DNA of 64,000 bases, taken from contig OY970296.1 in NCBI GenBank assembly GCA_963716175.1, positions 3,533,684 to 3,597,683 of the forward strand, read 5' to 3'. The position numbers and the translations under genes are program-made. Positions 2,389 through 28,174 of this stretch are shown one piece after another. This DNA comes from an uncultured Armatimonadetes bacterium (GTDB lineage Bacteria; Armatimonadota; Hebobacteria; Hebobacterales; Hebobacteraceae). The notes below the pieces were generated by a model. That model saw nothing but the letters and a program-made list of their open reading frames with translations, had not been told where the DNA came from and ran no database searches. How positions within the stretch are numbered: the stretch's first letter is position 1; every line of letters starts with the position of its first letter.

Positions 2389-4577
2389 GGCCCGCCCTGG
2401 TAGCAATACTGGCGGTCGCCTGCATGGCGACCGGGCTGTCCGGCAGTGCTCTGGCTGGCGGGCGGAAGCTCGTCCTCGGCATCGTTGACCAGGTGACGTG
2501 GAGCGACCTGCTGAGCGACGAGGTCCAGGCGCCAACGCTGAAGGGATTGGCCAGGAACAGCGGCGCCGGCCTGATGTGCGTGCGCACCGGGCGGGCTTCG
2601 GGTGGCGGCTATCTCACCATCGGGGCCGGCGCCCGCGCCAGCGCCTCCCAGCCCCAATCCCAGCCCGGCCCTGAGGGAAGAGCCTTCCTGAGGAACGAGA
2701 TCGTGGGCGGCGAGGCCGCTGGTCGCGCATACGCTGCCTACACTGGGTGGCCGGTGGGCGCGAATGGCATCGTCCACCTGGGGATTGGCAACCTGGTGCG
2801 CCAGAATCAGCCCACTACGTATCCCATCACCCTCGGCCTGCTGGGAAGCGCTCTGCACCGGTCGGGCCTGCACGTCGCCTGTGTCGGCAACGCCGACCTT
2901 CCGGACTCACCGCATCGGGAGCTGGCGGCCGTGGCCATGGATGAGCGGGGCCGGGTGGAGTTCGGCGACATCGGCGCCGGGCTGCTGGAGCGTGATCCCA
3001 GGCTGCCTTACCTGCTCACCACCCGCGGTGACCGCCTGCTCTCGGCCTTTCGGCGCGCGTTGGCCGTGGCCGATCTGATCGTGGTTGACTTCGGCGAGAC
3101 CTCGCGGGTGGGAGAGTACGCCGATGCGATGCCTCCTGCCGCCGCCCAGGCTGCGCGGCGCCGCGCTGTCGAGCGGGTGGATAGCCTGCTCGCAGGTGTG
3201 CTGAGAGAACTCCCGCCGACTGGCTGGGGGCTGATGCTGCTGGCGCCCACCGCGCGCGCCGCAGATCCCGAGGAGCAGTTCGCCAATCTGACCCCGGTCA
3301 TCTTCTATCTGCCCGGGGCCGAGCCGGGTCTTCTGACTTCACCCTCAACTCGCCGTCCCGGGCTGGTAGTGAACACGGATGTCGCTCCCACCATTCTCGG
3401 CTACTTCAGCCTCCAGACCCCCCCGGCCGCGGTCGGGCGGCCGATGCGGGTTGAGCCGACCAGGGGCGACTTGCTGGCCCGGGTGAAGAGCGACGAGGCT
3501 CGCCAGGCTGGGGTTGAGGTGGCGAGGCGCTATGCCTTCCGCTGGCTGGCCGTGCTGGCTGCCATTGCCCTCTGGGCGGCCGCGGGGATGTTCGCGCTGG
3601 GAGAGGGGGCGGCGCGCTGGGCGCGCGTGCTGGTGCGAGGATTGCTGCTAGCCCTGTTGGCCGCGCCGCCGGCGCTGCTCCTGGTGGGCCTGCGCCCCAT
3701 GTCGGCGGCGCAGATGCTGGCGGGCGCGGTGGCGATCTCGCTGGTGATCGCGTTCCTCGGCGCGGCGGCGACTCGCTGGAGGGCCGGGCATGCCCCGCCG
3801 GCGCTGCTCCTGGTGGCCTTGCTCGTCTACGACCTGGTGAAGGGGCAGACTATGCTCCAGTGGTCGCCGTTGAGCTACTCCGCGGCCGCTGGCGCTCGCT
3901 TCTACGGCCTCGGCAACGAGTACGGGGGAGCGCTCCTGGGCGGCGCGCTGGTGAGCGTAGCGAGTCTGCTACCAGCGCGTGAACGCGGGGGCGCCGTCGG
4001 GCGCTTGCTGGTCGGTGTGGTGCTGCTGGGCATCGCAGGCCTGGCAGGCTATCCCCGATTCGGCGCGAATCTGGGGATGGCTCTCGCCTGCGCCATCGGG
4101 TTTGCGGCCTTCATCGTCTACCTGTGGAGCGAGCGGCCCACCTGGGCCGATGCCGTCGCGGCGCTGCTGGTGGCGCTGCTGGTGGCCGGGGCGGCCATGG
4201 CAGTAGATGTGTTCCGCCACGGAGCCGAGGCCTCGCACCTTGGCCTGTTCGCCGCCTCTCTCCGGTCTCAGGGATGGGGTGCGCTGGGCCAAGTAGCGAT
4301 CCGCAAATGGACCCTGAACTGGTTGCTGGTGCGCACCTCGCTGTGGACGGATGCCGCGCTGGCCGGGTTTGGGGTGGTGGGTGTGCTGCTGCTGGCACGG
4401 CCTCGCCGTGGCGTTGCTGCCATGGCAGAGCGCCCGTGGCTGGCGCCGGCTCTCACCGCCTGCGTGGTCGGGGCCATCGCCTCCTGGGCTCTCAACGACT
4501 CCGGCATCGTCGCTGCCGCGCTGGTGCTGCTGTATGGCGCCGGCTCCTTCGCCTACCTGGGGCTGGGCGAGGCCTGA
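2385..4577 (+). CDS. membrane protein: N-terminal signal peptide + alkaline-phosphatase-superfamily-like ectodomain (LGIVDQVTWSDL ... NTDVAPTILGY) fused to C-terminal ~10-12 TM domain
   Basis: 730 aa; GTGA overlap with upstream GT4 gene (translational coupling); hydrophobic C-terminal half. Confidence 0.65.
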   Translation: MRPALVAILAVACMATGLSGSALAGGRKLVLGIVDQVTWSDLLSDEVQAPTLKGLARNSGAGLMCVRTGRASGGGYLTIGAGARASASQPQSQPGPEGRAFLRNEIVGGEAAGRAYAAYTGWPVGANGIVHLGIGNLVRQNQPTTYPITLGLLGSALHRSGLHVACVGNADLPDSPHRELAAVAMDERGRVEFGDIGAGLLERDPRLPYLLTTRGDRLLSAFRRALAVADLIVVDFGETSRVGEYADAMPPAAAQAARRRAVERVDSLLAGVLRELPPTGWGLMLLAPTARAADPEEQFANLTPVIFYLPGAEPGLLTSPSTRRPGLVVNTDVAPTILGYFSLQTPPAAVGRPMRVEPTRGDLLARVKSDEARQAGVEVARRYAFRWLAVLAAIALWAAAGMFALGEGAARWARVLVRGLLLALLAAPPALLLVGLRPMSAAQMLAGAVAISLVIAFLGAAATRWRAGHAPPALLLVALLVYDLVKGQTMLQWSPLSYSAAAGARFYGLGNEYGGALLGGALVSVASLLPARERGGAVGRLLVGVVLLGIAGLAGYPRFGANLGMALACAIGFAAFIVYLWSERPTWADAVAALLVALLVAGAAMAVDVFRHGAEASHLGLFAASLRSQGWGALGQVAIRKWTLNWLLVRTSLWTDAALAGFGVVGVLLLARPRRGVAAMAERPWLAPALTACVVGAIASWALNDSGIVAAALVLLYGAGSFAYLGLGEA

Positions 4578-18433: not shown

Positions 18434-19201
18434 ATGAAGATCCTGATCACCAACGACGACGGCATCGTCGCCCCCGGGCTGCTCGCGCTCCGTGCGGCCC
18501 TGCTGGAGATGGGAGAGGTCATCGCCATCGCCCCCGATCGTCCCCGCAGCGCCTGCGGTCACGCCGTCACCCTGCACAAGCCCCTGCGGCTGAACCGGGT
18601 GGAGCTGCCGGATGGCGGCGAGGGCTTCGCCTGCAATGGCACGCCCTCCGACTGCATCGCGCTGGGGGTGAGCGAGGACCTCGGCGGCCCGCCCGACCTG
18701 GTGGTCTCGGGGATCAACGGCGGCCCCAACCTGGGGTGGGACCTGACCTACTCCGGCACGGTGGCGGCGGCGATGGAGGGGGTGATCTGCGGAGTACCCA
18801 GTATCGCGATCAGCGTGGCGTCCCACACGGTCAGCGATTTTGGCCCCGCCGCTCGGTTCGCGCGCTACCTCAGCGAGGAGGTGGTCAGGCACGGCCTTCC
18901 CCAGGAGGTTTTCCTCAATGTGAACGTGCCGCCGGTGCGGGCCGAAGAGATCCAGGGCGTGGCCATCACCCATCAGGGACGGCTGATCTACGAGAACCGC
19001 ATCGAGCGGCGCACCGATCCCCGGGGCCGGGATTACTTCTGGTTCACCGGCGACCGGGTCGAGCACCGGGGCCAGCCCGGCAGCGATATCGAGGCCGTGG
19101 CCCGGAATCGCATCTCCATCACGCCCCTCCGCCTTGACCTCACCGACCACACCAGGCTGGCGCACCTGCGAGCCTGGGAACTGGAGTGGCCCCCAGGGTA
19201 G
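18434..19201 (+). CDS. surE: 5'/3'-nucleotidase SurE
   Basis: MKILITNDDGI N-terminal motif. Confidence 0.9.
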   Translation: MKILITNDDGIVAPGLLALRAALLEMGEVIAIAPDRPRSACGHAVTLHKPLRLNRVELPDGGEGFACNGTPSDCIALGVSEDLGGPPDLVVSGINGGPNLGWDLTYSGTVAAAMEGVICGVPSIAISVASHTVSDFGPAARFARYLSEEVVRHGLPQEVFLNVNVPPVRAEEIQGVAITHQGRLIYENRIERRTDPRGRDYFWFTGDRVEHRGQPGSDIEAVARNRISITPLRLDLTDHTRLAHLRAWELEWPPG

Positions 19202-19255
19202 AATGAGTGAGATCGGCGCTCGTTTCCCGCCGCACCATGGCCGGAAAGCTCCGAC

Positions 19256-20176
19256 GTGCCCAACTTCGAGCCTGCTTACCTGTCCTTGGACCCGGAAGCC
19301 CTGGCCGCACGCGTGCGCGAACTGCGGGAGCTGATGGGCGACTGTCAGCTCTGCCCGCGGCGGTGCGGGGCCGACCGGCTGGCCGGGCAGGTCGGCGCCT
19401 GCGGTGTGGGCGCAGAGCCGGTGGTCTCCAGCTACGGGCCCCACTTCGGCGAAGAGGCCCCTCTGGTGGGGCGGGCCGGCTCTGGCACGATCTTCCTCAC
19501 GCGCTGCAACCTGGGCTGCATCTTCTGCCAGAACTACGACATCTCACAGCTTGGCCATGGCCGCACCGTAACTTGCCAGGCCCTGGCCGAGATGATGCTG
19601 GAGCTGCAAGCGCGGGGCTGCCACAACATCAACTGGGTCACCCCCACCCATCAGGCCCCGATGCTGGTGCAGGCGCTGCAGATCGCTCGGGACAGGGGTC
19701 TGCGGGTCCCGATCGTCTACAACTGCGGGGGGTATGAATCGCTGAGCGCGCTCCGCCTGCTCGACGGCATCGTTGACATTTACATGCCAGACGCGAAGTA
19801 CGGAGACAACGCGGCGGGAAAGCAGTTGTCAGGTGTGCCGGGCTACTGGGACCGCAACCGGGAAGCGCTGGCCGAGATGCACCGCCAGGTGGGTGACCTG
19901 CAGACCGACCGTCTCGGCATCGCCACCCGCGGGCTGCTGGTGCGCCATCTCGTGTTGCCCGACAACCTGGCCGGAACCGCGGCGGTGATGGAGTTCCTGG
20001 CCGGCTTGAGCCGTGACAGCTATGTGAATGTGATGGCCCAATATCGCCCGCAATACCGGGCGCGGGAGGTAACCGCGATGGCGCGGCCCATCGCCTCGGG
20101 GGAGTTCCGCGAGGCGGTGCAGGCGGCGCTCGCGGCGGGCCTGCATCGCCTGGATGAGCGGTGGGCGCTGCGGTGA
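19256..20176 (+). CDS. radical SAM protein, PflX/COG1313-like (PFL-activase homolog)
   Basis: CQLCPRRCG..R..G..G.CG, CNLGCIFCQNY CX3CX2C. Confidence 0.8.
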   Translation: MPNFEPAYLSLDPEALAARVRELRELMGDCQLCPRRCGADRLAGQVGACGVGAEPVVSSYGPHFGEEAPLVGRAGSGTIFLTRCNLGCIFCQNYDISQLGHGRTVTCQALAEMMLELQARGCHNINWVTPTHQAPMLVQALQIARDRGLRVPIVYNCGGYESLSALRLLDGIVDIYMPDAKYGDNAAGKQLSGVPGYWDRNREALAEMHRQVGDLQTDRLGIATRGLLVRHLVLPDNLAGTAAVMEFLAGLSRDSYVNVMAQYRPQYRAREVTAMARPIASGEFREAVQAALAAGLHRLDERWALR

Positions 20177-21351
20177 CGACCTCTCCGCCCACCAACCCGC
20201 AGCTCTCGGGTCCTTCGACCGTCGCCTATCTCATCTTCCTGCTCTGGCTCGAGCTGGGATACGCGGTCGCTCTCGCGATTCTCCCGGGCCTTTCCTGGCG
20301 GGCCGCGCTCTGGCAGGGGGCAGTGTGCGTGGCGGCGATCATCCCGTTGCTGCTGGCGGTGGTGGAGGTCGTCGCTATTCCCAAGAGGCTGGGCCGGGTA
20401 CCAGCCGCGGTGATGAGAGCGATCTGGACCCTCGGGGGCCTGGCCGAGCTGATGCTGCCGTGGCTGGGGTGGGCGGCTGTGTTGTGGCTGATCAACCGCG
20501 GCGCGCTTTCCTGGCCAGTCGCATTCCGGTCTGGCGCAGGCATTGCCATGTTCTCCTATCTGACCGGTGCTGGGTTGGTCTTGTGGTTCCGGCCCCGGCC
20601 CGAGCAGGTACAGCTCTCATCCCTCGAGATCCCGATCCCAGGGCTGCCTCCGGAGTTCGAGGGATACCGCATCCTCCACCTCTCCGACCTCCATATCGGC
20701 AGTTCGGCTGCTGTGGCCGACTTGGGCCGCCGCCTGGCCAAGGCGGCCTCACTGCGCCCAGACCTGACAGCCTTCACCGGGGATCTGGCCGAGACGCCCA
20801 GCTTGGCTGACCGGGCGGCCGAGGTACTGTCTGCACTCGCCGCGCCCGATGGGGTGGTGGCGGTGCTGGGCAACCACGACATCTGGGCCGGGGAGAAGCG
20901 CGTCCGCGGCGCCCTCGAAGGGCGAGGGGTGAGGGTGCTGGTGAACCAGCACACTGCGATCTCCCGCGGTGGCGCCAGCATCTACCTCGCGGGCGTCAAC
21001 GATGCCTCCTACACGGGTCGCGACGATCTGGACGCCGCCCTGGCGGGGATTCCGGCAGGCGCGCCTGTGATTCTGCTCAGTCACGCCCCGGTCATCATCC
21101 GGCACCCCGCGATTGACCGTGTCGCTCTGGTGCTCTCGGGCCACACTCATGGCGGCCAACTCGTGCTTCCCTGGATCGGCGCCCTGTATGTCCCGTCGCG
21201 GCTCGGGCGGCGTTACGCCTCCGGGCTGCATCGGATCCCGAGCGGATGGCTGTTCATCACTCGTGGGCTGGGCGAAGTCTTTCCACCCATGCGCATCGCC
21301 TGTCCGCCCGAGATCGCACTGCTCACCTTGCGGTCAGCGCCTTCGGATTGA
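20161..21351 (+). CDS. membrane-anchored metallophosphoesterase (calcineurin-like)
   Basis: N-terminal 4-5 TM; HLSDLHIG, GDL, GNHD, GHTHGGQ motifs. Confidence 0.8.
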   Translation: MGAAVTTSPPTNPQLSGPSTVAYLIFLLWLELGYAVALAILPGLSWRAALWQGAVCVAAIIPLLLAVVEVVAIPKRLGRVPAAVMRAIWTLGGLAELMLPWLGWAAVLWLINRGALSWPVAFRSGAGIAMFSYLTGAGLVLWFRPRPEQVQLSSLEIPIPGLPPEFEGYRILHLSDLHIGSSAAVADLGRRLAKAASLRPDLTAFTGDLAETPSLADRAAEVLSALAAPDGVVAVLGNHDIWAGEKRVRGALEGRGVRVLVNQHTAISRGGASIYLAGVNDASYTGRDDLDAALAGIPAGAPVILLSHAPVIIRHPAIDRVALVLSGHTHGGQLVLPWIGALYVPSRLGRRYASGLHRIPSGWLFITRGLGEVFPPMRIACPPEIALLTLRSAPSD

Positions 21352-21377
21352 CACTCGGAAGCCGGACCCGATATACT
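21348..21377 (+). promoter_or_regulatory. promoter TTGACA-N18-TATACT for tRNA-Ser (-35 overlaps upstream stop codon)
   Basis: tRNA starts 6 nt after -10. Confidence 0.5.
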
Positions 21378-21383
21378 TCAAAC

Positions 21384-21469
21384 GGAGAGATGGCCGAGTT
21401 GGTCGAAGGCGCACGACTCGAAATCGTGTAACCCGTAAGGGTTCGGGGGTTCGAATCCCTCTCTCTCCG
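21384..21469 (+). tRNA. tRNA-Ser (anticodon CGA), long variable arm, no encoded CCA
   Basis: acceptor GGAGAGA/TCTCTCC, anticodon loop CUCGAAA, variable arm ~16 nt, T loop TTCGAAT. Confidence 0.85.
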
Positions 21470-21514
21470 CGGTGTTCTCATTCGGCGAGCTTCGCCCGCA
21501 GGAGGAGGTGCAAG

Positions 21515-21790
21515 ATGGTGCAGGTTGATTTCGACATGCTCGTTTTCCGTGAAGGCGAGTCCTACGTCGCCTACTGCCCTGAGTTGGATGTATCCTCCTG
21601 CGGCCACGATGTGGACGAAGCGCGCGCCAATCTGAAGACTGCAGTGCGGCTGCTTGTCGAGGAAGCAAACAGACTCGGCACTCTGGATCAGGTGCTGCAG
21701 GAGGCGGGGTACATCGCGGATGGCAAAGGTGGGTATTCATCTCCTCGCCTGGTGGCGACTGAAAGCGCGTCGGTCGCGGTCGGAGGGTGA
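21515..21790 (+). CDS. hicB: HicB-family antitoxin (UPF0150 fold)
   Basis: YVAYCPELDV.S.G.DVDEA..NLK.A..L pattern; [10 protein letters not shown]. Confidence 0.7.
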   Translation: MVQVDFDMLVFREGESYVAYCPELDVSSCGHDVDEARANLKTAVRLLVEEANRLGTLDQVLQEAGYIADGKGGYSSPRLVATESASVAVGG

Positions 21791-22023
21791 CATTGCCGCG
21801 GCTGTCGCCGATTCCGGGCCGGCGTCTGCGCCGGGTCTTCGAGCTGGCTGGATTCGTCTGCGTGCGGACAGAGGGCGATCACTTCGTGCTCACGAAACTG
21901 GGGCTGCCTCGGCCGCTAGTTATCCCGGACTACGATGCAGTGCCTGTCTTCGTGATTCGAAACAACCTCCGAACAGCAGGCCTTTCCCGCGAGGAGTACT
22001 TCCGCCTGCTCGAAAGCACATGA
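21787..22023 (+). CDS. hicA: HicA-family mRNA-interferase toxin
   Basis: 78 aa; L...GF..VR..G.H..L.K pattern; GTGA overlap with hicB. Confidence 0.7.
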   Translation: MTLPRLSPIPGRRLRRVFELAGFVCVRTEGDHFVLTKLGLPRPLVIPDYDAVPVFVIRNNLRTAGLSREEYFRLLEST

Positions 22024-22118
22024 CCCGGCGCGATGCCGAGCTGGCGCAGGCGGATGTGGTGGCGAAGCACCGGCAATTCCCGCCCGGCGACAGGTTCCTC
22101 CCGCAGGTGCAGGAGGCC

Positions 22119-22139
22119 GGAGGGAGGAAGCGGCTGCGG
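22119..22139 (+). repeat. 21-nt direct repeat GGAGGGAGGAAGCGGCTGCGG (copy 1)
   Basis: exact match to 24481-24501. Confidence 0.9.
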
Positions 22140-22412
22140 CCGAGTCAGGGGCGCAGCAGTACAGGGCACCGGGGAAGCTCGGAGGGGTCGCGAGGCGGAA
22201 AGAGAGGGCCCGGTCCCAGTATCCGTTGAGCTAGAGGGGGTAAAGCTCAAGGACGTGCCCGGGCCGGGCCCCGCATGCCTGTGCGCCGGCCTCATGCTGT
22301 ACTCGGGAAGGTGCTCAACGTGGTGCGCACAAGCGGGGTCAGTGTACCACACACATCGCGTCAGCGAACCATCGTTTCGCTATGAGAAAAACCGCCGCAG
22401 CCTGGGCCCAGG

Positions 22413-24164
22413 TCACGGCAAGCCGTCGGCGATGCGCTCCTGCCAGCCGGGCACCAGGAGGCGGGAGATGGCACCGGCTGCCGAGCGAAGCAGCGGGAGC
22501 CAGCGACGGATGTTCACCTCCGTGAAATCCTGTATCACCGCCGTCAGCGCTACTGCGCCAACTACCGCATTGTCGGGAGTGCTAAGAGGCACGGCCACGG
22601 CGCCTATGCCAAGGTCGGACTCTTCCAGGTTCAGCGCGTACCCTCGCTCCCGCACCAGGGCAAGCTCACGTCGAAGCTGCTGCGGAGACTTGATAGTCTT
22701 TGGAGTCCGCGACGACAAACCGTCCTGTAGGTAGCTTTCTATGCTTGCCCTGGACTGGGCCGCCAGGCAGCACTTCCCACCTGCCGTGGCGTGCAGAGGC
22801 GGGAAGGTCTCCTCGTCAGCGCTCAGCCGCACCGGACCGCTCGGATGGACAACCTGCAGGTCCATGGGCCACCGCCCAGTTGCGTCTGCGACGGTAATCC
22901 TGGCGACTGCCCCGGTCGCGTCGACCAGCTCCTGCAAGACGGCGCGAGTCAGCTCACTCAGGACGGCGGCGGAGCGGAGGAAACGGGCAATGGGCAGGAA
23001 ACCCAGCGGGTCCGGCCGGTAGCCTCTTCCGGGCGCATCCCGCGCCACGATACCCTCCTGCTCCAGGGTTCGCAACAGCCGCCGCGCGGCCGGCTCAGGG
23101 AGAGCGCGTATGCGCGCGGCCTCGCCCGCGGTGAGGCCTTCCGGCACCACGAGCAGCAGTTCGATGAGGCGCATCGCGCGGGCAACCGAACGAACTGCCG
23201 GCAAGGGACCGTCGCCGAACCCCGGGTCAGGGGTATCCGGGAGTGGTATCCCCTTCGGCCTGCGCCAAGCGGAAGCCCTCACTCGGGACAGCCACCACTC
23301 GTAGCTGAGGAGGGCCGAAATGGCGTCCGCCGACTGCTGCAAGTGCGCCACCAGTTGTGAGGTGTCAGCGCGTGGAGGGAAGACATCTGCGTAGGCCAGG
23401 GCCAGCGCTCCCTTCACCTCTCCTGACGCTGCGCGCAGGGGAACGGCCACGCCGGCGGACTGCATGGTGGCCTCCTTGTTGTTGAGGGCATAGCCTTGCT
23501 CTCGGATCCGCCGGAGTTCCTTCCTCAGTCTGGAGGGTGAAGTGATGGTGCGAGGGGTCATGCTCTCAAGACCAGGCCTGATGTAGTCCTCCAGTTGCTG
23601 CTCAGACAGGTGGGCGAGGTAGCACTTGCCGGAGGCTAGCGCATGTAGGGGTTCCGGGGGCCGCTCGGAGAGGTCCAATCGAACAGCAGTGTGGGGCAGA
23701 GACATCATGGTTGCAGTGCAGGTGCGGCTGGTGCGGTCAGGACAGAACAGGGCAGCTGTAGCGCCTGTGCGCGCAGCTAGCTCGTCCAGTATGCCCTTTG
23801 CTGCATCGGCGAAGTCGAGCAAGGGAGAAGCGAACGCCGCGAGGCGGACCATGCCGGCCGGATTCCTGGCATAGCGCTTCGTATCGACATCCTGGACGAC
23901 CACGCCCTCAGTCATGAGCGTGCGGAGCAGCCGCACGAGTGTCGGCTTGTGCAGCCCGAGCTCCAATGACAGCTGGGCGAGCGACTGCGGCTGCCGATGG
24001 CTCGTGAGCACGCGCAGGATGCGCATCGCACGAGCGGCAGACTGGACAGTACCGTCTCGTGCGCTCTTGGGGCTGTCTTGCGGCCGCTCTGATGATGTGC
24101 GTGACGTGGCAGGCACCTCACGTGGACCCAAACGGTGCTGTTCGCATCTGTTCGCCGATGCCAA
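22413..24164 (-). CDS. tandem-duplicated IclR-family transcriptional regulator (two HTH + effector modules)
   Basis: 583 aa; two copies of MRIL..L (HTH) followed by IclR effector domains with G..(A/C)(L/V)A.P motif. Confidence 0.8.
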   Translation of the reverse strand: MASANRCEQHRLGPREVPATSRTSSERPQDSPKSARDGTVQSAARAMRILRVLTSHRQPQSLAQLSLELGLHKPTLVRLLRTLMTEGVVVQDVDTKRYARNPAGMVRLAAFASPLLDFADAAKGILDELAARTGATAALFCPDRTSRTCTATMMSLPHTAVRLDLSERPPEPLHALASGKCYLAHLSEQQLEDYIRPGLESMTPRTITSPSRLRKELRRIREQGYALNNKEATMQSAGVAVPLRAASGEVKGALALAYADVFPPRADTSQLVAHLQQSADAISALLSYEWWLSRVRASAWRRPKGIPLPDTPDPGFGDGPLPAVRSVARAMRLIELLLVVPEGLTAGEAARIRALPEPAARRLLRTLEQEGIVARDAPGRGYRPDPLGFLPIARFLRSAAVLSELTRAVLQELVDATGAVARITVADATGRWPMDLQVVHPSGPVRLSADEETFPPLHATAGGKCCLAAQSRASIESYLQDGLSSRTPKTIKSPQQLRRELALVRERGYALNLEESDLGIGAVAVPLSTPDNAVVGAVALTAVIQDFTEVNIRRWLPLLRSAAGAISRLLVPGWQERIADGLP

Positions 24165-24211
24165 ACATACCTCCTAGTCACACTCGCGAGAGGCCTTGGG
24201 GGGCGCGGGCA

Positions 24212-24230
24212 GCAGGAGGGAGGAAACGGC
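24212..24230 (+). repeat. near-copy GCAGGAGGGAGGAAaCGGC of the repeat, in IclR promoter region
   Basis: 18/19 match to 24478-24496. Confidence 0.7.
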
Positions 24231-24480
24231 CGGGCTGATTGGTGGTGTCAGGAACAGAGAGCCAGGCCCCCGCCTCCGCCGCTCCGCTAGCTGAGGCTGA
24301 TGGCAGGCCTGGCTCTCAAAACGTGTCACATCCCGAAATGGCGATGAGGGCGCGGTCGCGGGCGCCCTCATGGCAGCTTTACTCCGCTGTCTGCGCGGCT
24401 ATTCCTGCAGCAATGCGGGCAGAGGGAAGCTCTGCACGCGTTCCCACGGCCGCAGGTCCATGGGGACGGCGAGGACGGCA

Positions 24481-24501
24481 GGAGGGAGGAAGCGGCTGCG
24501 G
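24481..24501 (+). repeat. 21-nt direct repeat GGAGGGAGGAAGCGGCTGCGG (copy 2)
   Basis: exact match to 22119-22139. Confidence 0.9.
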
Positions 24502-24560
24502 TAATGAGACGGTTGGCAGGTCGGCGCACAAACGGCGGCGCGATAGAGGGAAGACGGGGG

Positions 24561-25550
24561 ATGGCCGAGTCCGGGTGGTCTAGCGAGGACATGAGACACG
24601 CAATCAACCTCGGAGGCTACTACCTGGAAGCCGGTCTACGGGACTTCGGCGAATGGTCGGAGCAGATGGTGGAGGACGCGGGTGAGGAGATACGGCCCTA
24701 CTTGCGGCTGGTATGGACGGAAGCCAGCAGGCAGGTAGAGGAAGCGTATAGCGCACAAGGGGCGTCGGCCAGTGGTGCAGCGCAGGATAGGGTGGCTTTC
24801 TGCGTGATATGCGGGCGGCCTTGCGGTGAGGGGATGGAGGTCTGCCCCGACTGCGGCAACAGGACAAACCTCAGCGCGGGAGAAGGGGAGTTGCCTAACG
24901 GCGGCGAGGCGACCGCGACAGAGACGACTGAGACGGGGCCTAGCCGCGAGGCGTGGGAGCTCGTCCTTCGCGAGGCGCGACGGCACAAGAAGCCGTGGCT
25001 GGCGTTCGTCCTGGCGCTTTGTCTCGGTCCTCTGGGCGTCTTCTACATAGGCGCCAATTTCGGCTTGAGCGCAGTTGTTGTGTGGGGCATACTGGCTGCC
25101 CCCGCCGCCATGTGGGCTCCTTCATGGCATTGGATGGTCTGGGTCGCCAATCTTCTCTTGGCCATTCACGCAGCCGACCTCGCGCAGAAGCGGAATGCGC
25201 TACTCTCGGCCTCGCTGCTGATAATGGCTGAAGCCCCGACCAGCGAGGAACTCGCAGGCGTCTTCAACTTCTGGTCGGGACCGTATGCAATCACGACGCT
25301 TGCAAACGAGTTCCTACCCTCTGCTGCCTTCTGGATGACTCTCGTCGAGATGGTTCGCCAGGGCATAGGGCTGTTCCGCGAACATGCTGTGGGAGCGGGA
25401 GTATTCGTACTGGTGCTATCCCCAATTGTCGCCCTGGTCGCCACCTGGTTCTACGGCCTTATCGGCGGCATCGTTGCTCTCCTGGGCACCGGGATTCACT
25501 GGCTCGCCGCCAAGCTGAGTCGGCAACCGTTGTGGTTCCCGGACGCGTGA
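24561..25550 (+). CDS. hypothetical protein: cytoplasmic N-domain, Cys4 zinc ribbon (CVICG...CPDCG), C-terminal TM region
   Basis: start chosen at MAESGW (GGGGGA SD); longer ORF from 24504 possible. Confidence 0.5.
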   Translation: MAESGWSSEDMRHAINLGGYYLEAGLRDFGEWSEQMVEDAGEEIRPYLRLVWTEASRQVEEAYSAQGASASGAAQDRVAFCVICGRPCGEGMEVCPDCGNRTNLSAGEGELPNGGEATATETTETGPSREAWELVLREARRHKKPWLAFVLALCLGPLGVFYIGANFGLSAVVVWGILAAPAAMWAPSWHWMVWVANLLLAIHAADLAQKRNALLSASLLIMAEAPTSEELAGVFNFWSGPYAITTLANEFLPSAAFWMTLVEMVRQGIGLFREHAVGAGVFVLVLSPIVALVATWFYGLIGGIVALLGTGIHWLAAKLSRQPLWFPDA

Positions 25551-25568
25551 CAGGAATGGCCTAGGCGT

Positions 25569-26519
25569 TCAGAGACTGCCCCGTCGGACTTCCGCTCGGA
25601 CGAAGGCATTGTAGGAGGAGTAGCCCGCAGACCGCTCTTCTATGACAGCCGCGCCGCACTTCTCTCTGTATCTGTCCACGCGGCCACGGAGCTCGTGGGG
25701 GAGGGGCCTATCGTCGCCCTGTGTGTTGGTCGTGTCTGTAGGGTCGCCATACATTGGGAACTCTCTTCGGACCTGCCGCATCGCTTCGTCTTGCGAGAGC
25801 CCTGTCTCCCGCAGGCTCTTGAAGACGGAATAGCGAAACACTTGCTCCGACCAAATCACCATCCGTCGCTGGAGGTCGTGCAGGTTCCACCACTCGGCGA
25901 TGTCCTCGTCGGTGGCACCCTCGTTCCAGGCTTTGCTTACGACGCCGAGCGCAACGGAATGCCCAGCCCGCGCGTCAAGGAGAACGAGGTCGCCGAATCC
26001 CGGTGCCAGGGCGGCCGTGCCTTCCTTCTCACCTTGTTTCTTGCACATCTTGAGGGCGCGCAGAACCTCCTTGTGGGCGGCATACTCGGACATGCCACAG
26101 TTGAGTGATAGCATCTCCGTGTAGAGCCGCGCCAGTTCGTTTTCGACATGTGGAGTGGAGCGCATAGCGCGCACCAAGGGTAGTGCCCCTCCCCAAACCG
26201 GTGCCGCGGCGAGAAGGAGCGCAACGCGAAGGGGGACTTCGCGCTGAGGCGACAGCCACAACGCAATGAGTGAAACAAGCACCTGGGCCAGGAACGCGCA
26301 CCAGGTCACAAAGCGCTTTCGATTGGGTGCCCACCAGTGAACGAATGCGACGAACGTATAGCCATGCACGGTTTGCGCGAGCACGAGGGCTGATGTGAAC
26401 TGCCGCAGAATCGCATGGGTCATCCAGAATGTGAGAGTGTGGGCGGCAAGCGTAGACAACAGCGCGAGGGGAAGGAGAAGCGTCCAGCGCACAAAGCTCC
26501 CTGCCCTCACGGCCTGCAC
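25569..26519 (-). CDS. hypothetical membrane protein (N-terminal ~4 TM, C-terminal ~190 aa soluble domain); lower GC
   Basis: 316-aa ORF, no recognisable family. Confidence 0.5.
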   Translation of the reverse strand: MQAVRAGSFVRWTLLLPLALLSTLAAHTLTFWMTHAILRQFTSALVLAQTVHGYTFVAFVHWWAPNRKRFVTWCAFLAQVLVSLIALWLSPQREVPLRVALLLAAAPVWGGALPLVRAMRSTPHVENELARLYTEMLSLNCGMSEYAAHKEVLRALKMCKKQGEKEGTAALAPGFGDLVLLDARAGHSVALGVVSKAWNEGATDEDIAEWWNLHDLQRRMVIWSEQVFRYSVFKSLRETGLSQDEAMRQVRREFPMYGDPTDTTNTQGDDRPLPHELRGRVDRYREKCGAAVIEERSAGYSSYNAFVRAEVRRGSL

Positions 26520-26794
26520 ACCTTACACGGAGTCAGTCCGCGCGCTTCGGCTTCGGCGCGCGTCATGGGAATATCGGACTTCGAGAGCGAAGGGCAGCTG
26601 GCACGATGATACCGCTTCCCGGTAGCAGTGGCGTGGACTATGTCGGAAGCTGCCCCAGCGGGTGCCCGGGCGGACGAGGACGAGAGAGACGCCTTGGTCG
26701 CGGGGCTGTGCCGGGCGCCACGGCCGGCGGCGAACGCAAGAACCGCCACCACAACCACAACGGCGACAACCAAGGCCCAATGCTTCGACCTCAT
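26507..26794 (-). CDS. small protein with N-terminal hydrophobic anchor and Ada-type zinc-binding domain (YHR.SCP...CK.CRP)
   Basis: 95 aa; KRYHRASCPS...GLTPCKVCRP matches Ada metal-binding domain pattern. Confidence 0.5.
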   Translation of the reverse strand: MRSKHWALVVAVVVVVAVLAFAAGRGARHSPATKASLSSSSARAPAGAASDIVHATATGKRYHRASCPSLSKSDIPMTRAEAEARGLTPCKVCRP

Positions 26795-27037
26795 GCTATC
26801 CCTTCCTTACGCGACGCAACTGCAGTAAGCGGCTCAGCGTGGTGGCTCAGGAAGGGCCTTTGGGCGGTCGTTCGCCGCTGCCGGCGGACGGTCCTGCTGA
26901 TGTTCGCGCTCGCGCGCCCGGTGCGGCCAGCGCTATCTTTCCGGGGGCTTGTCAGGAGCGGTGACAGGAACCGGCCGGCAAGAGCAGGAACCGCCTTCTT
27001 GGCATAGACCTGGCATTACCCTGGGAGGGAATCAGCC

Positions 27038-27949
27038 ATGTTGACACGCGTTAGCGGCATCCTCGTGGGCTTCCTGGCGTTAGCAATGGTGACTGGCTGC
27101 TACCGAGGCCGGCCGGCCCCCAGCGCGGGCCGCAGGGAAGCGCAAGGGCCGGCCGGGCGGCAGACCATCCACCAGACCGGATCCACCACGATGCTGCCCA
27201 TGGCAGAGAAGTGGCACACGGCCTTCAACATCGAGCACCCGGAGATCGAGATCGTGGTTTCCGGCGGCGGTACCGAAGCCGGCCTAAAGGCCTTGATCTC
27301 GGAAACGGCCGAGATCGCTGATTCCTCCCGCGAGCTCGAGCCCGCAGAGATCCAACAGGCGAAGGCGGCCCAGGTGTACCTGCTGGCCACAAAGGTGGCC
27401 AGGGATGGTGTCGTGGTCATCGTCAACCCAGCCAACCCGATGCGCGCAATCACTCTGGAGCTGCTGTCCGACATTTACTCGGGGAAGGTCAAGGACTGGG
27501 GCCAGGCCGGAGTGTCCGGCCTCGGCGCCATCGAGCTAGTGAGCCGGGACCCCGCCTCCGGCACCCGGAAACTGTTCAAGGATGTGGCGGTCACTCTCAA
27601 GGGTCGGGACAAGGGCCGCGACTATGCCCCGAAGGCGCTGGAGCAAACCTCGAGCGAGGCCGTGCTCACCCTGGTCAGCCAGAGCAAGAACGCCATCGGC
27701 TACGTGGGGCTGGGGTATGTGAACAAGACCGTGCGGCCGCTCGACATCATCGTGGAGGAGGGACAGGAACCGATTCCTGCGTCGCCGGGCACGGTGCGCG
27801 ATGGCACCTACCCTCTGGCCCGGGACCTTTACTGCGTCACCAATGGAGAGCCGACGGGCGCAGTGAGAACCTACCTGGACTGGGTTCAGGGGCCACGAGG
27901 CCAGGTGATTGTGGAGCAGACCGGCTACGTTCCCCTGATCGCGCCATGA
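27038..27949 (+). CDS. PstS-family phosphate-binding lipoprotein (orphan, no pstCAB adjacent)
   Basis: lipobox LAMVTGC; GSTT, GGGT..G motifs of PstS fold. Confidence 0.75.
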   Translation: MLTRVSGILVGFLALAMVTGCYRGRPAPSAGRREAQGPAGRQTIHQTGSTTMLPMAEKWHTAFNIEHPEIEIVVSGGGTEAGLKALISETAEIADSSRELEPAEIQQAKAAQVYLLATKVARDGVVVIVNPANPMRAITLELLSDIYSGKVKDWGQAGVSGLGAIELVSRDPASGTRKLFKDVAVTLKGRDKGRDYAPKALEQTSSEAVLTLVSQSKNAIGYVGLGYVNKTVRPLDIIVEEGQEPIPASPGTVRDGTYPLARDLYCVTNGEPTGAVRTYLDWVQGPRGQVIVEQTGYVPLIAP

Positions 27950-28174
27950 GCGCGAGGCCATCTTAGCCTCACGCGGCCGCGGGTCGCCCGAGCGCTCTCC
28001 AGCCAAGCGCGCGTCGTCTCCCACCTACGGCCGCGGTCGGCAGCAGGCCTCCGGCCGCCGTTTGCCGACCGCGCGCACTGCCGGACCAGTCGAAGGGTTC
28101 GCGCGAGTGGCGATGAAAGGGGAAACAAGAGTCAGCGCGCGGTACCGCGCGCAGCCCAAGGAGGCAGTGGCAGC

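Follow-up and report, generated by a model that had tools for sequence, protein, structure and literature searches.

A direct repeat around a tandem IclR gene as the probable vestige of integrase genes at a tRNA-Ser hot spot in an uncultured Armatimonadetes bacterium

A Direct Repeat and Its Surroundings

A stretch of 64,000 nucleotides (nt) from the genome of an uncultured Armatimonadetes bacterium (assembly GCA_963716175.1, contig OY970296.1, positions 3,533,684 to 3,597,683 of the forward strand) was analysed; this whole stretch is here called the window, and positions are counted within it unless a comparison locus is named. A preliminary description had pointed to an exact 21-nt direct repeat, GGAGGGAGGAAGCGGCTGCGG, whose copies lie 2362 bp apart on the two sides of a gene encoding a tandem IclR regulator. 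A scan of the window recovered both copies on the + strand, at 22119-22139 and 24481-24501, and also the 19-nt variant that had been reported with them (GCAGGAGGGAGGAAaCGGC, 24212-24230), which matches the 24481 copy in 18 of 19 nt. The copies are named A (22119 side), B (the 19-nt variant) and C (24481 side), while L and P labels designate comparison loci and proteins, respectively. All three are in direct orientation, with the tandem IclR open reading frame (ORF) placed between A and the pair B and C, and the remaining 61 kb of the window holds none. These repeats are in all likelihood the vestigial 3′ ends of tyrosine-integrase genes, scars of past insertions at a tRNA-Ser hot spot, rather than binding sites of the regulator. 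The features of the locus are as follows.

21384-21470, + strand: tRNA-Ser(CGA), found by ARAGORN and matching the Rfam tRNA family with 59 bits
21515-21790, + strand: hicB-like ORF with no Pfam match
21787-22023, + strand: hicA (Pfam HicA_toxin, E = 3e-6)
22018-22139, + strand: relic A, 122 nt, reading as the last ~40 codons of an integrase gene (MTRRDAEL...AGGRKRLR), with the 21-mer at 22119-22139
22140-22412: conserved non-coding stretch of ~275 nt between relic A and the IclR stop
22413-24164, − strand: tandem IclR gene, a 583-codon ORF with two HTH_IclR + IclR_C units (Pfam)
24027-24205, − strand: conserved IclR 5′ region, 84-87% identical to locus L220 (87% over 178 nt), the homology stopping where relic B begins
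24202-24238, + strand: relic B, ~35 nt, reading as a degenerate integrase tail, GARAAGGRKRPG, followed by TGA
24250-24355: spacer piece, 76% identical over 108 nt to L222 2121-2225, downstream of a response-regulator gene
24426-24504, + strand: relic C, ~55-80 nt, reading ...ARTAGGRKRLR followed by TAA, with the 21-mer at 24481-24501
24505-24560, + strand: conserved leader of ~55 nt, containing GGCGC-N10-GCGC[CG]
24561-25550, + strand: gene for a 329-aa membrane protein with weak Pfam DZR (zinc-ribbon) matches
26507-26794, − strand: small Ada-Zn-like ORF, 85% identical over 46 aa (tblastx) to L133 13557-13694, with a weak Pfam Ada_Zn_binding match

The earlier judgement that chance identity was negligible held, since dinucleotide-preserving shuffles gave an expectation of 0.01 matches to the 21-mer; no third match with at most three mismatches was found on either strand of the window. 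The 12-mer AGGAGGGAGGAA, with one mismatch allowed, occurred four times in the window against 0.29 expected. The likeness also outruns the 21-mer on its upstream side, where A and C have 73% identity over 55 nt. For B and C the identity is 79% over 38 nt, and these two copies could be aligned over 43 columns.

Two other pairs of direct repeats in the window, 14529-14617/16950-17038 and 4924-4970/19503-19549, are no mobile repeats but motifs conserved between paralogues, namely between two genes for 2-hydroxyacid dehydrogenases and between two for radical-SAM proteins with a CxxxCxxC motif.

The Repeat Reads as the C-Terminal End of a Tyrosine Integrase Family

A scan of metagenome contigs found the exact 21-mer in four of them. 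It is directly followed by a stop codon in three contigs (L120-L122) and also in L060, a metagenome-assembled genome (MAG) of Armatimonadetes and the one genome match sharing flanking homology. The ORF that it ends in L120-L122 and L060 reads ...LLGHSSLDMTRRY[AC]EL...AGGRKRLR before the stop, and its longer reading, ...HPHRFRHTCAVMFLR.GGDAF.LQKLLGHSSLDMTRRY[AC]EL...SPGDRFLSQV.KAGGRKRLR followed by the stop, corresponds to the catalytic C-terminal half of a tyrosine recombinase. By its translation, the 21-mer thus reads as the last seven codons (GGRKRLR, the C-terminus) of a XerD-like tyrosine integrase family.

A protein search with the repaired L121 integrase returned 120 homologues of ~323-327 aa, many of them labelled Armatimonadota, which carry PF00589 together with PF02899/PF13495. 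The parent integrases have the invariant R, K, H-x-x-R, H and Y residues. The tail HRxxSPGDRFLxxVxxxGGRKRLR is kept in homologues down to ~46% identity and falls beyond the Pfam catalytic domain, which stops at residue 292 of 323.

The reading frame was confirmed by the comparison with L060, in which the 13 codons preceding the 21-mer differ at eight sites, four of them synonymous third-position changes. In integrases that were fetched by protein identity, the 21-mer itself showed one to four differences, mostly synonymous, as follows.

L208 and L209: 1 difference, synonymous
L127: 2 differences, synonymous
L124: 3 differences
L133: 4 differences, all synonymous
L213: 4 differences

The exact 21-mer is the commonest version, being found in L060, L120/L207, L121 and L122. 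This mostly synonymous variation indicates that the constraint acts on the protein tail, and the identity of A and C in the 21-mer is put down to this protein-level constraint on the end of the parent genes, of which several living copies have the identical sequence, and not to a DNA-binding function. An invariant DNA site was considered and rejected, the exactness of the metagenome matches being an ascertainment effect.

A scan of genome contigs with a degenerate 18-mer gave at least 119 single matches across unrelated phyla; among the matches listed, L060 alone had flanking homology, and the pattern was too loose. In viral contigs, the integrase alignment detected distant relatives only (at most 44% identity), with matches ending before the tail, and neither the tail 21-mer nor an 18-mer of the 275-nt element was present in them.

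The tail alleles of two of the metagenome contigs deserve a separate remark. L121 and L122 are 98.4% identical over 1.7 kb and share an identical frameshift in the integrase, but of the 28 mismatches between them, 12 are crowded into the 40 nt that precede the 21-mer (L122 353-391). This patch swaps the tail allele (SQVQKA vs PAVRTA) and resembles a short gene-conversion patch. In protein P0036, the common tail stands on a divergent body.

Three Probable Remnants of at Least Two Integrase Genes

Relic A is 94% identical over 122 nt to the 3′ end of the L121 integrase gene, and its translation matches protein P0016 with 82.5% identity over 40 aa (tblastn, E = 4e-15). It was also recovered with E = 2e-16 by an nhmmer tail profile, which was built from the last 75 nt of ten integrase genes. 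It begins at the Met of ...LDMTRRY..., its catalytic Tyr is replaced by Asp (TRRDAEL vs TRRYAEL), and its stop codon has been lost, with CCG in its place. The tail allele to which relic C comes nearest is that of L122 (94.6% identity over 37 nt), and the profile matched this relic with E = 2e-6 at 24453-24504. Its local alignments cover −55 to +23 relative to the 21-mer, with scores of 28-42 where shuffled sequences reached at most 18, and its likeness runs ~45 nt past the stop into the post-integrase sequence of L120 (79% over 77 nt). Relic B is the most degenerate copy, with a profile match of only E = 1 and an in-frame stop two codons on; it occupies the same position as a 130-nt relic in locus L217. 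The three copies share a reading frame that gives AGGRKR, and a stop lies zero to two codons after B and C.

Relic A is therefore of the L121 type and relic C of the L122 type, the same two alleles that separate these contigs from each other, which indicates that A and C came from different source integrase genes and not from one recent duplication. The full catalytic domain (R-K-H-R-H-Y) is not present in any of the three copies, in which only the last ~40, ~12 and ~25 codons (A, B and C, respectively) are left, and they are accordingly relics and not functional tyrosine recombinases. A tblastn search with the 120 integrases detected no other integrase fragment in the window at E ≤ 0.01.

Two further candidates were discarded. 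An apparent extension of the integrase match into hicA was an alignment artefact, and a possible RNA hairpin within the tail (TTCCTC.../...GGAGGGAGGAA) reached only −6.6 kcal/mol in RNAalifold, with no covariation.

The tRNA-Ser(CGA) Gene as an Integration Hot Spot

The part of the window from 7.9 to 21.3 kb is syntenic with loci L124 and L133, and comprises the genes for Maf, MreB/C, Pth, an aminotransferase, PGDH, SurE, a radical-SAM protein and a metallophosphoesterase, followed by tRNA-Ser(CGA). The synteny with L124, L133 and L220 stops at this tRNA gene, and both L124 and L133 have a full-length integrase gene directly after the same tRNA. This arrangement suggests that tRNA-Ser(CGA) of the window is an integration hot spot, at which three tails in the same orientation survive, from at least two different integrase alleles, with no intact integrase.

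The parent elements are 7-10 kb long and comprise the integrase gene, one or two small ORFs, an HTH_17 excisionase-like gene, a D5_N primase gene and sometimes a serine recombinase gene. They are bounded by duplicated, nearly complete tRNA genes, which were delimited for tRNA-Leu (83-87 nt) as follows.

L127, 9773-9855 and 18817-18899: 83 identical nt of tRNA-Leu
L209, 7506-7591 and 14504-14589: duplicated tRNA-Leu
L213, 2222-2308 and 12857-12943: duplicated tRNA-Leu

The family uses at least four tRNA targets (Ser-CGA, Ser-GGA, Leu-CAA and Leu-TAA), and these boundaries indicate that its attachment (att) site is the tRNA gene and not the integrase tail.

A tblastx comparison of the window with L127 and L133 found only two common parts, the integrase tail and the small Ada-like ORF at 26507-26794. 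As the latter is common to the tRNA-Ser island of L133/L134, it indicates that the region derives from an island, and the window would thus hold a degraded island at an integration hot spot. The hicB-like/hicA pair lies between the tRNA and relic A and is absent from the orthologous locus L220 (compared at 4112-4215). The TGA stop of hicA lies inside the ATGACC that opens relic A, so that the stop would have been supplied by integrase-derived sequence.

The IclR Gene and Its Conserved Flanks in Related Genomes

The annotated start of the IclR gene is probably the ATG at 24026, and protein P0121 is 100% identical to its product from residue 47. The interior of the gene is 56-79% identical to L220 in DNA. 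In the comparison with L220, L217 and L222 (58-60% in amino acids), the gene thus falls below its own non-coding flanks (82-89%) and is also more divergent than the neighbouring core genes (70%); it may be fast-evolving, or may have been exchanged between conserved flanks.

The 275-nt stretch that separates relic A from the IclR stop has an identity of 82-89% with L220 and of 73-80% with L217, and its mismatches fall evenly on the three codon positions (15/13/13, no bias). RNAalifold predicted a fold of −61 kcal/mol on both strands from four sequences with few covariations. A long invariant GC-rich stem, GGGGCCCGGCCCGGG / CCGGGCCC, is part of the predicted structure. When positions 19000-28000 were searched against Rfam at E ≤ 1, only tRNA-Ser reached the gathering score and the 275-nt stretch was unmatched; matches to sX4 and Plastid-psbl-rps4 overlapped tRNA-Ser, below their gathering scores. 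The 275-nt stretch may be regarded as a candidate structured RNA or a conserved 3′ untranslated region (UTR).

The unit formed by this stretch, the IclR gene and its 5′ region (~2.07 kb), here called the IclR block, was followed in other genomes. L220/L221 is the orthologous locus, with the radical-SAM gene, the metallophosphoesterase gene and tRNA-Ser(CGA) at 70% DNA identity. In this locus, the tRNA is followed by 102 nt, an integrase relic of ~170 nt with a frameshifting deletion of 13 nt, the 275-nt stretch, the IclR gene and its 5′ region; beyond the latter, sequence like the post-integrase-stop DNA of L121 was found, with no copy of B or C. L217, which belongs to the same MAG as L060, has on the 5′ side of the IclR block a relic of ~130 nt (DMNRRYAEL...GGRKRLR, then the stop), the leader and a gene for an SLH protein. 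On the other side of the block lies a very degraded tail-like stretch ending in CTGCGG, in which a 14-mer, GGGGGCGCGGGCA, is common to the left part of B. IclR homologues at L218/L219 and L222 have no tail detectable with the tail profile.

Since two further genomes have a tail abutting the IclR block, each on a different side, these loci fit an older tail-IclR-tail arrangement that would have decayed differently in each lineage. The association of tail and IclR gene thus appears not to be accidental, and yet appears not to be regulatory.

The spacer between B and C offers a further comparison. The likeness of its piece at 24250-24355 to the flank of a response-regulator gene that lies next to an IclR homologue in L222 suggests that the window has lost such a gene by deletion. 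The spacer was also considered as a second copy of the IclR block, and this was rejected, as it has no significant similarity to the left end of the block.

Regulator Sites and Insertion Scars as Alternative Readings

Three readings of the repeat had been offered in the preliminary description, namely operator sites of the regulator, target-site duplications or att-like scars of an inserted cassette, and a purine-rich element resembling an extended Shine-Dalgarno sequence. For the last of these, the gene start that would be served is the conserved ATG at 24561, which lies ~70 nt downstream of the purine run and has a GA-rich stretch of its own, and copy A has no start codon downstream; the reading was abandoned.

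That the copies are operators for the tandem IclR protein draws on their positions, as they bracket the IclR gene with B and C in its divergent upstream region, and on the repeated adjacency of the IclR block to the motif in other genomes, which would equally suit a target-site duplication or att scar left by insertion of an IclR cassette. However, the copies represent the end of an integrase coding sequence, with its stop in frame, and the 21-mer is a non-palindromic purine run with no dyad symmetry. The IclR homologues at L218/L219 and L222 have no such motif, and L220 has one copy only, on the 3′ side of the gene. As for a duplication, the flanks of A and C differ (73% identity over 55 nt) and match different integrase alleles, so that one duplication did not create both, and the att site of the family is the tRNA gene. 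Operators and duplication scars of a cassette are thus considered very improbable. What stands of the earlier suggestion is its more general part: the repeats do appear to be scars of inserted mobile DNA, in the form of integrase-gene remains beside a tRNA hot spot, and not as a target-site duplication or att.

Remnants in Other Islands and a Conserved Leader

In addition to the three relics of the window and those of L220 and L217, tail relics were found in L211 (8065-8136, E = 9e-15) and L213 (4526-4562, E = 1e-4). Such extra relics of other islands lie on the same strand as, and downstream of, an intact integrase gene, and have in-frame stops. The relic of L211 is found past both the attR tRNA copy and a DUF6308 gene, as tandem accretion (the successive integration of related elements at one site) predicts. 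Weaker tail candidates were noted at L208 11227-11265, L127 11473-11497 and L133 12271-12315.

The leader that follows relic C in the window recurs elsewhere with the pattern cagagcg..GGCGCagaaagggcgGCGCC..aggagcgagggaaATG, after an integrase stop or a tail relic. Copies were located as follows.

L207, 5145-5193: after the intact integrase gene
L127, 11498-11553: after a second tail
L211, 8137-8190: after a second tail

The genes that follow the leader are unrelated to one another and encode an SLH protein, a small membrane protein family and a zinc-ribbon membrane protein. Owing to the conservation of the leader, the start of the downstream gene of the window was placed at 24561. The leader, with its GGCGC-N10-GCGCC dyad, may be a regulatory site of the islands.

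Origin of the Arrangement

It is proposed that related elements would have integrated successively at the tRNA gene, producing the tail-IclR-tail layout by tandem accretion, and that deletions and gene replacements, such as that by hicBA, would then have removed the integrase bodies. In this proposal, the relics would play no part as operators of IclR.

Several observations weigh against this explanation. First, in all seven relics (7/7) no more than the final 170 nt of a gene of ~975 nt are left, and random deletion endpoints predict otherwise; protection of a promoter or of the leader could be the reason why 3′ ends are kept. Second, relic A together with the 275-nt stretch is 82-89% identical to L220, against 70% for the flanking core genes and 56-79% for the IclR interior. 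A neutral relic should decay faster, and the conservation of relic A therefore hints at selection, gene conversion or recent transfer; each of these, with the conversion coming from intact paralogues, could explain that of relic A and the 275-nt stretch. Third, relic A lacks its stop at a junction, CTGCGG/CCGAG, that is common to L220, and simple accretion predicts otherwise. Finally, traces of the elements themselves are missing: neither a repeat of the tRNA-Ser 3′ end (attR, with up to three mismatches or as a significant local alignment) nor a partial tRNA preceding B or C was found in the window, and the tblastx comparison with L127 and L133 revealed no hallmark island genes (primase, excisionase) in it. 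No tRNA-Ser 3′-end repeat was found in L124 or L133 either, and an 11-nt match to the tRNA-Ser 5′ end at 24554 is at chance level.

The arrangement fits two origins, which are tandem accretion of two elements followed by deletions, and insertion of a unit of tail and IclR block through the tail. In the second case, the IclR block would travel with one tail of ~130 nt and would enter integrase genes by a single crossover through that tail (Campbell-type, mediated by RecA or by an integrase). The outcome would be tail-block-tail, with the resident integrase extended past its stop and disabled. In agreement with this, each of three lineages has the block next to a tail, which is on the left side in L220 and on the right side (130 nt) in L217, while the window has tails at both ends of the block, and the left junction, CTGCGG/C[CT]GAG, is common to all three. 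In L217, the sequence GCTTCACTGGGGGCGCGGGCA...CTGCGG in the left flank resembles the right end of the block joined to a B-type tail, which would represent a head-to-tail junction; the right junction of L220 could have formed when a second tail was deleted between short repeats of GCAGG; and tail alleles are mosaic, as seen in the mismatch cluster of L121/L122 and in P0036. However, no circular form or intact donor was seen, IclR homologue loci without tails exist (L218 and L222), and the left-flank tail of L217, which nhmmer did not detect at E ≤ 100, rests on a 14-nt identity read by eye. Moreover, tandem accretion with differential deletion covers most of the same junctions, and entry of the block through a tail is held to be unlikely.

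Another explanation concerns the present role of the tails, which, regardless of how they arose, may now be selected as cis elements, contributing either to a promoter or leader of the downstream gene (C with its leader) or to a non-coding RNA of ~400 nt or 3′ UTR of the IclR gene (A and the 275-nt stretch). The conservation of relic A and the 275-nt stretch (83.5% identity with L220 along 394 nt, where core genes reach 70%, with no codon bias) agrees with this, as do the strong predicted consensus fold and the retention of the 3′ end only in all relics. In L207, L127, L211 and the window, genes unrelated to one another are preceded by the same order of tail, stop and ~55-nt leader with GGCGC-N10-GCGCC, and a single terminator-like site was seen in the region, which belongs to the IclR strand and lies at the far end of A (22041-22023). 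However, no sigma-70-like promoter was predicted at or around the tails, covariation is lacking for the hairpin inside the tail, and the 275-nt element is represented by four sequences only, in which the stems are mostly invariant and thus uninformative. Some copies are decaying, as indicated by the 13-nt deletion of the L220 relic and the bad degradation of B, and gene conversion from intact integrase paralogues could mimic the conservation of the tails. Present selection of the tails as cis elements is accordingly rather doubtful.

A more speculative reading brings elements of both explanations together, in which the tail would serve as a portable recombination anchor by which an IclR block without a recombinase could enter, and disable, integrase genes of related islands, and/or the relic and the 275-nt stretch would form a selected non-coding unit of ~400 nt. 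Although improbable, it would explain the retention of 3′ ends, the flanking of the IclR block in three lineages and the conservation above that of coding DNA, and the ~400-nt unit would be an RNA, structured or antisense, with a link to the IclR gene.

Comparison With Known Systems and Significance

Tandem accretion of islands at tRNA genes and at ssrA is documented (PMC3146451, on the tandem ssrA islands of Dehalococcoides; for ICESt1-type elements, the passage of PMC4891358 that cites Pavlovic 2004). The locus described here resembles such islands in that a tRNA gene is the repeatedly used site, relatives carry an intact tyrosine integrase gene directly behind the tRNA, loss of integrase function is seen in composite or tandem remains, and the L211 relic lies just beyond the attR tRNA copy. 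It differs in the repeated sequence, which in the described accretion cases is att (the 3′ end of a tRNA gene or ssrA) and here is the integrase gene's own 3′ end. Unlike those cases, the window holds no surviving att repeats, and each integrase is reduced to its last 170 nt or less.

The parent genes share the domain architecture of XerC/XerD-like recombinases (PF00589 with the N-terminal SAM-like PF02899/PF13495). In contrast to XerC/XerD, the parent family has a C-terminal extension of ~31 residues past the Pfam catalytic domain, SPGDRFL...GGRKRLR, and acts as an island integrase at tRNA genes and not as a resolvase of chromosome dimers, whereas the copies of the window are fragments.

Cis-mobilizable elements (CIMEs) and IS26-type translocatable units move by recombination between flanking direct repeats. 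A likeness to them would concern only the speculative reading given above, in which a block without its own recombinase is surrounded by direct repeats derived from a mobile element, with flanks that vary between genomes. Unlike CIMEs and IS26-type units, the repeats are the coding ends of integrase genes, not att sites or insertion sequences, and neither excision nor a circle is in evidence.

The repeat is thus real and is explained by an ordinary process, being a new instance of a known genomic scar in a little-studied phylum. Its value lies in correct annotation, since a repeat resembling a regulatory or att site is pseudogene debris that marks a tRNA-Ser hot spot and a degraded island. The comparisons also outline, for Armatimonadota, a family of small integrative elements that target tRNA genes and whose integrase has a distinctive basic C-terminal tail. 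The residual interest lies in the 3′-end bias of the relics, in a conservation that exceeds the coding background and in their repeated association with the IclR block; if these unexplained features are real, they could show how remnants of integrase genes are reused as homology anchors or as regulatory DNA in the evolution of islands.

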